NCBI RefSeq assembly: GCF_003334305.1
Contig: NZ_QOWS01000010.1
Length of the DNA: 64,000 nucleotides
Strand: one strand, 5' to 3'
Source: Escherichia coli
GTDB taxonomy: Bacteria; Pseudomonadota; Gammaproteobacteria; Enterobacterales; Enterobacteriaceae
Shown here: piece by piece, positions 17,470 to 17,811 of the stretch
How positions within the stretch are numbered: the stretch's first letter is position 1
How the letters are laid out: every line of letters starts with the position of its first letter
Notes under the pieces: generated by a model
What the model saw: the letters and a program-made list of their open reading frames with translations, nothing else
What the model was told of the DNA's origin: nothing
The model's database searches: none
Program-made: the position numbers and the translations under genes

Positions 17470-17811
17470 TTACGCGACCTTTTTTGCACGCTCTTCACGG
17501 CGTGCCAAATATTCAGCCACTGTTTCAATCCGTCCCAATTCTTCCTGGGTGCGCATGTTGTTTTCAACTTCCCAAAAATCAACTGCCGCCTGGAGGTTTA
17601 GCCTAAAATCGACTGTGGTATCAAAAACTTTCGCCAGACGGAATGCCATCTCAGTGGTGAGTTTACGATTGTTATTGATCAGTGCACTGACGCTATTACG
17701 ATGAACATGCAGCAACTCTGCTAACTCATTGATTTTCAAATCGAGCGGTTCCAGATATTCATAGAGAAGAATATCTCCGGGTGTCGTCGGTTTTCTTGTT
17801 GCCTGTTTCAT
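17470..17811 (-). CDS. ybaQ: HigA/Xre-like HTH DNA-binding protein (antitoxin-like), 113 aa
   Basis: Track ORF 17470..17865; start placed at MKQATRKPTTPGDILLYEY (complement of 17809-17811). Confidence 0.85.
   Translation of the reverse strand: MKQATRKPTTPGDILLYEYLEPLDLKINELAELLHVHRNSVSALINNNRKLTTEMAFRLAKVFDTTVDFRLNLQAAVDFWEVENNMRTQEELGRIETVAEYLARREERAKKVA

Follow-up and report, generated by a model that had tools for sequence, protein, structure and literature searches.

A toxin-less HigA-type antitoxin gene, ybaQ, between copA and ybaP of Escherichia coli: a probable survivor of a HigB/HigA module

The stretch of Escherichia coli DNA analysed here (64 kb in all, hereafter the window) carries between copA and ybaP the gene ybaQ, an intact ORF whose translation starts with MKQATRKPTT and finishes with RREERAKKVA. 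The features of this gene and of its surroundings are the following:

17470-17811, minus strand: ybaQ coding sequence, 113 codons plus stop (ATG at 17811, TAA at 17470-17472; from the ORF list)
17473-17490, minus strand: last six codons of ybaQ, encoding RAKKVA, the ClpXP C-motif-2 (sequence; PMC9775585)
17575-17577, minus strand: codon 79, TTT (Phe), which is CTT (Leu) in K-12 and ST131
17602-17604, minus strand: codon 70, AGG (Arg), where K-12 and every toxin-bearing allele sampled have TGG (Trp)
17677-17733, minus strand: helix-turn-helix (HTH) region, residues 27-45 (AlphaFold2 helices 27-34 and 38-45; Pfam HTH_3)
17403-17444, strand not given: REP element in the copA-ybaQ spacer (inverted repeat, naRNA4 match, alignments)
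17812-17887, strandless: 76-bp segment of the toxin-less allele, lacking the operator (alignments, motif searches)
17888-17948, strandless: 61 bp upstream of ybaP common to all four allele types (common right-hand breakpoint)

The start codon of the divergently transcribed ybaP lies at 17949, leaving a gap of 137 bp, and the copA stop lies at 17356 on the downstream side of ybaQ, in agreement with the surroundings and positions described in a first-pass annotation of this DNA. E. coli chromosomes, of which NZ_CP010178.1 is one example, are 100% identical to the window over 701 bp spanning ybaQ; in them the gene order is copA-ybaQ-ybaP and the product of ybaQ is annotated as 'HigA family addiction module antitoxin'. 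An inverted repeat search placed the REP palindrome at 17414-17443, with arms at 17414-17427 and 17430-17443, and the region gave a sub-threshold match to the model of the REP-derived naRNA4. In alignments this REP is missing from the toxin-bearing allele described below and is expanded in K-12. The copA-ybaQ spacer of the window (17357-17469) is 113 bp long, with one REP and a terminator hairpin of which an arm is disrupted; that of ST131 (locus L001, 1443-1499) measures 57 bp and contains a clean terminator hairpin, CGGATGCGC...GCGCATCCG, and that of K-12 (L003, 1186-1500) extends over 315 bp. As a consequence of this variation in spacer length only 3,565 genomes reach at least 80% coverage of our first query.

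The first-pass annotation had described YbaQ as a 113-residue Xre/HigA-type HTH protein, and profile searches bear this out. The translation scores 94.9 bits against the HigA equivalog model NCBIfam TIGR02607 (cut-off 47.7), with residues 6-84 aligned to profile positions 2-80 of 81, and matches Pfam HTH_3 over residues 16-68 (3.6e-10); PADLOC defence models return weak generic HTH matches only. The closest structure is PDB 2EBY (1.3e-68), deposited as 'putative HTH-type transcriptional regulator ybaQ', which corresponds to the K-12 allele. An AlphaFold2 model of YbaQ (pLDDT 95.2) contains seven helices (11-23, 27-34, 38-45, 53-63, 67-83, 86-93 and 98-112), the third of which is presumed to be the recognition helix. 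In Foldseek searches with this model the best neighbours after 2EBY are all HigA/GraA antitoxins, with probability 1.0, namely P. aeruginosa HigA, GraA, PA4674, C. burnetii HigA and P. vulgaris HigA. Hence both the profile score and the HTH fold place YbaQ in the HigA family. YbaQ is a known ClpXP substrate, and its C-terminal RAKKVA is catalogued as a C-motif-2 substrate tag (PMC9775585) that is widely used as a transplantable degradation tag. The terminal VA/AA is kept in nearly all YbaQ relatives in our alignment, and the tag fits the short half-life expected of an antitoxin, the lability itself being established in the literature.

No partner toxin was detected in the window. A tblastn search with HigB-1, the toxin found beside ybaQ in other E. 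coli strains, gave a best E-value of 0.18 across the 64 kb and of 1.6 within 17300-18000, and a profile built from 13 HigB-1 homologues gave a best E-value of 1.1 against the six-frame translation of the window, all at chance level; a toxin remnant within the window was rejected on these grounds. The five small alternative ORFs around ybaQ (98, 80, 51, 48 and 33 residues) matched no NCBIfam or PADLOC family. A complete type II HigBA locus has a HigB/RelE-fold toxin directly upstream of the antitoxin, and the window has none, as the first-pass annotation had read from the ORFs beside the gene.

The state of the same site in other strains was surveyed in 5,426 complete E. coli genomes, using ybaQ plus the start of ybaP as the query. 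ybaQ is present in 4,815 of these, and 1,267 (about 23%) carry the higB-1 segment directly upstream of it, always as one chromosomal copy per carrier genome and never on a plasmid. The paired architecture accounts for 14 of 60 evenly spaced survey rows, which agrees with this count. In the ST131 locus a 35-bp spacer separates ybaQ from an upstream ORF of 100 residues, which is assigned to Pfam PF05015 (HigB-like toxin) at 3e-32. Four types of allele were distinguished between copA and ybaP:

Paired allele: L001 (ST131), L023 and L026-L028; ybaQ, 35-bp spacer, higB-1 ORF of 100 residues and promoter/operator; 1,267 genomes
Solo allele: the window and K-12 (L003); ybaQ with the 76-bp segment upstream; about 3,550 genomes (4,815 minus 1,267)
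Null-1 allele: L002; unrelated GC-rich repeats, 368 bp in length, filling the gap between the copA stop and the point 61 bp before ybaP
Null-2 allele: L022; of ybaQ only the final 21 nt, adjoining the distal portion of the 76-bp segment

The two null alleles together account for about 610 genomes. As Null-2 still contains the 3' end of ybaQ and a portion of the 76-bp segment, it is clearly derived from the solo allele through deletion of ybaQ. A small duplication, CCATTTG/CGATTTG, is seen at the deletion junction in strain WP7-S17-ESBL-01 (L022, 1423-1593), and the repeat-like GC-rich filler of Null-1 in strain SWHEFF_58 (L002, 2133-2500) runs exactly from the copA stop codon. The region of strain HS-02 (L021, 1373-1700), annotated as 'hypothetical protein', was considered as a half-higB intermediate and rejected, since it contains long A/C homopolymers and looks like an assembly or polishing error. 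In a sample of five toxin-bearing alleles that spans the identity range there are four different HigB proteins but a single YbaQ (WP_000806442.1, which is also the K-12 protein).

Beyond E. coli, 17 loci with YbaQ relatives were found when prokaryotic species were scanned, each represented by one genome. The three syntenic ones, at copA-ybaP in Escherichia (L004, L005 and L009), are all solo. The remaining 14 are non-syntenic (13 with 65-81% identity to YbaQ and one Caldilineaceae MAG with 35%), and every one of them has a HigB-1 homologue directly upstream. The comparison with genomes that carry a toxin next to a ybaQ homologue, proposed along with the original reading, thus finds such neighbours in the 1,267 E. 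coli genomes and in 14/14 relatives elsewhere. In four of the 14 the higB gene is broken beside an intact antitoxin ORF, by a nonsense codon at position 24 in Citrobacter portucalensis (L007) and by frameshifts in Escherichia sp. ESNIH1 (L011), C. koseri (L012) and Enterobacter sp. Bisph1 (L013); an intact toxin with a broken antitoxin was found in none of the 14. In the YbaQ subfamily, then, the toxin has repeatedly been lost first and the antitoxin has outlasted it. In Escherichia sp. E1V33 the syntenic solo ybaQ has itself been frameshifted after residue 93 (L009, 3001-3323), with loss of the ClpXP tag; the same strain has a complete higBA copy of the type found on phage D6 (L010) on another contig. 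In E. albertii NBRC 107761 four tandem ATGACCA heptamers occupy the start of higB (L019, about 2590-2630), where D6 has one ATGACTA, and this tract is a possible slippage-prone site at the toxin start codon. Because the solo allele is also found in the three other Escherichia loci, the solo and paired alleles would either both be old or have been spread by recombination, the order of events being a matter of inference.

Alignment of the paired and solo alleles delimits the segment that distinguishes them. The two are collinear as far as the ybaQ start codon and again from 61 bp upstream of ybaP; between these points the paired allele has a variable segment of about 409 bp, made up of a 71-bp promoter/operator, the 303-bp higB-1 gene and a 35-bp spacer, and the window has its 76 bp. 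A clean deletion of the toxin ORF would leave the promoter plus the spacer. The 76-bp segment shows no significant local similarity to the higB regions of the 14 loci (p > 0.2), and in a colinear global alignment against 'promoter plus spacer' it scores weakly above shuffled sequences (p about 0.02; about 0.007 for the spacer part). Among solo alleles, including the three Escherichia species-level representatives, the segment is conserved, with 2-7 differences over 77 positions; the higB-ybaQ spacers of other species are highly variable and thus uninformative as to its origin. Since any resemblance to the higB region is confined to a weak colinear one, we conclude that an old event, a replacement or a very old deletion and not a simple recent excision, probably removed both the toxin and its control region.

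The control region that is missing can be defined by comparison, as it was derived here from the comparative alignment and not from the ChIP-exo motif of Gao et al. Upstream of higB the operator has the form ATGCAC-TTG[C/T]GCAC-A-GTGCA-N5-GTGC..-TAnnnT, or in short ATGCACTTG[C/T]GCACAGTGCA..GTGC..TAnnnT, and consists of four TGCAC/GTGCA half-sites that overlap the -35 and -10 elements. It is kept in 14/14 displayed paired loci (12 from other genomes and two E. coli alleles) as well as in phage D6. Upstream of ybaQ in the window (17812-17948) neither the full motif, allowing up to three mismatches, nor the TGCAC-N9-GTGCA pair occurs, so the autoregulatory site would have been lost along with the toxin. 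The operator is absent from the entire 64 kb as well, where one match with one mismatch (475-493) falls below chance expectation. The window therefore does not have the autoregulatory operator over a promoter that marks a complete HigBA module, and judged by these alignments the solo ybaQ has neither its regulatory site nor its toxin. A simple scan for a consensus sigma-70 promoter upstream of the solo ybaQ found none; a candidate, TTGGGG-N18-TATGAT, was spotted by eye only. At the Shine-Dalgarno position the paired allele has AAGG and the window AGTT.

The YbaQ protein of the window is identical to that of K-12 (2EBY) at 111 of 113 positions, differing by W70R and L79F. The first turn of helix 5 contains W70, as part of the family signature FWLNLQ; the window has FRLNLQ in its place, which departs from that signature though N72 and Q74 are kept. 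All 18 close relatives aligned have a tryptophan at position 70. Of 124 diverse cluster representatives 115 do so too, and the rest are E. coli R70 alleles, frameshifted junk and only two independent genuine variants. Position 79 is less constrained in the wider family (L in 80, I in 22, V in nine and F in five). The exact 48-mer containing R70 occurs in 1,274 of the 5,426 complete E. coli genomes, so R70, shared by at least that many genomes, is a lineage polymorphism and cannot be put down to sequencing error. Going by this conservation alone, the two substitutions most likely weaken folding or dimerisation, in keeping with what is expected when selection for restraining a toxin has ceased. 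Counted per solo lineage, substitutions number none in K-12, two in the window, three in L004, two in L005 and three plus the frameshift in L009; these small numbers would fit a relaxation of constraint after toxin loss without proving it. When the ybaQ genes of K-12 (solo) and ST131 (paired) are compared, there are five synonymous and no non-synonymous changes, which argues that constraint probably persists in some lineages. Together with the ORF remaining intact in about 3,550 toxin-less genomes, these synonymous-only changes could reflect continued selection for another function.

Based on these observations we propose that ybaQ is, very probably, the surviving antitoxin half of a HigB/HigA module that once lay between copA and ybaP. 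In the complete module a single promoter with four TGCAC/GTGCA half-sites drives higB-1, encoding a RelE-fold HigB of 100 residues, followed by ybaQ; YbaQ represses this promoter, according to the literature, and would neutralise the HigB-1 toxin, as expected from its family, with ClpXP keeping it short-lived by way of the C-terminal RAKKVA, as is also published. In the lineage of the window 76 bp lacking the operator stand in place of the promoter/operator, toxin gene and spacer, and ybaQ is an intact ORF with neither a toxin nor a cognate operator. The direction of change is taken to be loss and not gain, and ybaQ is presumably dispensable in the genome of the window, either drifting or kept for a secondary role. 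The published record supports this account in several respects. YbaQ was called a solitary antitoxin by RASTA-Bacteria in 2007 (PMC2374986), and Rousset et al. in a 2020 preprint (bioRxiv 10.1101/2020.05.25.114553) identified higB-1 as its lost partner and mapped its distribution over phylogroups. They further reported that the higB-1 promoter holds the YbaQ ChIP-exo motif, that higB-1 is de-repressed in strain S88 when ybaQ is knocked down, and that in a CRISPRi screen ybaQ was essential in five of 18 strains, only in higB-1 carriers. That YbaQ binds and neutralises HigB-1 is indicated indirectly by this essentiality.

A different role for the solo protein would be that of a working transcription factor and not a relic, YbaQ having been kept for the control of other promoters as is P. 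aeruginosa HigA. Among the rivals it is the most probable, though we consider it unlikely. It would account for the YbaQ protein that is unchanged between K-12 and the toxin-bearing strains and for the intact ORF in the toxin-less genomes, and it is in line with the 'other functions' suggested by Rousset et al. (bioRxiv 10.1101/2020.05.25.114553), with the YbaQ peaks and motif reported for K-12, a toxin-less strain, in the ChIP-exo study of Gao et al., and with the structural neighbour 7CSW, in which P. aeruginosa HigA is bound to the non-TA promoter pa2440. However, the conserved family operator is absent from the 64 kb, CRISPRi essentiality is confined to the five higB-1 carriers, several lineages have deleted or frameshifted ybaQ, and at least 1,274 genomes have an arginine at the nearly invariant W70; moreover, our literature search found no target gene or phenotype on record. 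Still harder to sustain, with a likelihood that we put close to nil, is the idea that the module is merely split and that the partner toxin is encoded elsewhere in the genome, so that ybaQ would be no orphan. The window covers just 64 kb of the genome and trans-acting antitoxins are known in principle, but no HigB-like ORF was found in those 64 kb by tblastn or profile, higB-1 occupies exactly one chromosomal place in each carrier genome and never a plasmid, the 1,267 genomes with higB-1 match the paired fraction (14/60 loci), and the need for ybaQ in the CRISPRi screen is limited to higB-1 strains. This reading is largely refuted.

The relatives of HigB-1 on mobile elements raise a further alternative. 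Homologues with 80-81% identity to HigB-1 are encoded on 92 plasmids of E. coli, Salmonella and other Enterobacterales, which among the matches listed (H149-H173) are mostly 75-94 kb in size and typed as non-mobilizable, and another is found on phage D6 (L024, 1501-2212; orf70/orf71). At both inspected loci (L024 and L025) the module adjoins P1-like tail and baseplate genes, on account of which we regard these plasmids as D6-like phage-plasmids. Among the 5,426 E. coli genomes, 76 carry the D6-type module on plasmids; a homologous toxin is accordingly carried by mobile elements of the same host. Orphan antitoxins have been proposed in general to act as anti-addiction modules (PMC7354431), and by analogy an orphan YbaQ might neutralise the toxin of a D6-like HigB module, repress that module, or both, so that the host could lose or resist such elements without being killed. 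YbaQ and the D6 antitoxin share 75% identity and differ within the HTH region by conservative substitutions only; the D6 operator, too, is nearly identical. Against such a role, the last 20 residues of the two antitoxins differ strongly, the names of the strains with D6-type plasmids suggest lineages that usually have a solo ybaQ (a judgement made by names alone), and a W70R allele is not what selection for it would be expected to produce. We consider this explanation improbable, and view with equal reserve the notion that cross-reaction with D6-like HigBA is what has kept the toxin-less YbaQ in most E. coli, in which case W70R/L79F would mark an immunity lost or changed. Were it true, cross-reaction of YbaQ through repression of the operator, neutralisation of the toxin, or both would blunt the addiction imposed by phage-plasmids. 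The surviving-antitoxin account thus remains the one that we prefer, and the first-pass view of ybaQ as an orphan, a remnant or solo regulator, holds, each of the checks proposed with it having turned out as it predicted and its remnant version being already documented in published work.

The orphan status of YbaQ and the identity of its lost partner having been published, the gene of the window is an ordinary, explained feature, and what the present analysis contributes is incremental: the number of genomes with each allele, the breakpoints together with the 76-bp replacement, the operator defined by comparison and its absence, the derivation of Null-2 from the solo allele, the recurrent pseudogenisation of the toxin, and the W70R/L79F allele and the reservoir of module copies with the same operator on D6-like phage-plasmids, neither of which features in the published accounts that we found. 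Taken together, these make the copA-ybaP site a clean natural series of toxin-antitoxin decay, visible across thousands of genomes, that would pass from a complete module through the loss of toxin and operator and then the core mutation or frameshifting of the antitoxin to its deletion. Whether higB-1 is present accounts for ybaQ being essential in some clinical lineages (B2, F) and not in others. The case also calls for caution with the annotation 'HigA family addiction module antitoxin', which does not imply a working module. The D6-like link and the W70R allele could in turn show whether orphan antitoxins protect against addiction by mobile elements.

Among known systems the nearest is the higB-1/ybaQ module of E. 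coli phylogroups B2 and F, which shares with the window the same gene at the same locus with the same copA and ybaP flanks. Between the window and ST131 ybaQ differs at four codons (two synonymous and two non-synonymous). Compared with that module the window has 76 bp instead of the 303-bp toxin gene, the TGCAC-repeat operator/promoter and the 35-bp spacer, encodes a protein with W70R and L79F, and has acquired a REP downstream. K-12 YbaQ (b0483) resembles the window in being a toxin-less allele whose 76-bp segment differs at 2/77 positions, and unlike the window it keeps W70 and L79. The module of D6 (orf70/orf71) resembles the paired allele in its toxin-antitoxin gene order and operator architecture, its toxin being 80% identical to HigB-1 and its antitoxin ending in KKAA, alike to the KKVA of YbaQ; unlike the orphan gene of the window, it is complete and resides on a mobile element. 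The chromosomal CcdA of Erwinia chrysanthemi, considered with respect to the CcdB of the F plasmid (PMC7354431), is like YbaQ an antitoxin with toxin homologues on mobile elements, yet it comes from another family, and any cross-neutralisation by YbaQ is hypothetical. YbaQ also shares its fold with the solved HigA structures of P. aeruginosa (7CSV, 7CSY and 7CSW), P. putida GraA (6F8S and 6FIX) and P. vulgaris (4MCT and 6CHV), with Foldseek probability 1.0, TM 0.63-0.76 and about 28-36% identity. These systems have the same reversed order, toxin then antitoxin, as the ybaQ family; YbaQ differs from them in two extra C-terminal helices (86-93 and 98-112) and, in the window, in standing apart from any toxin partner.
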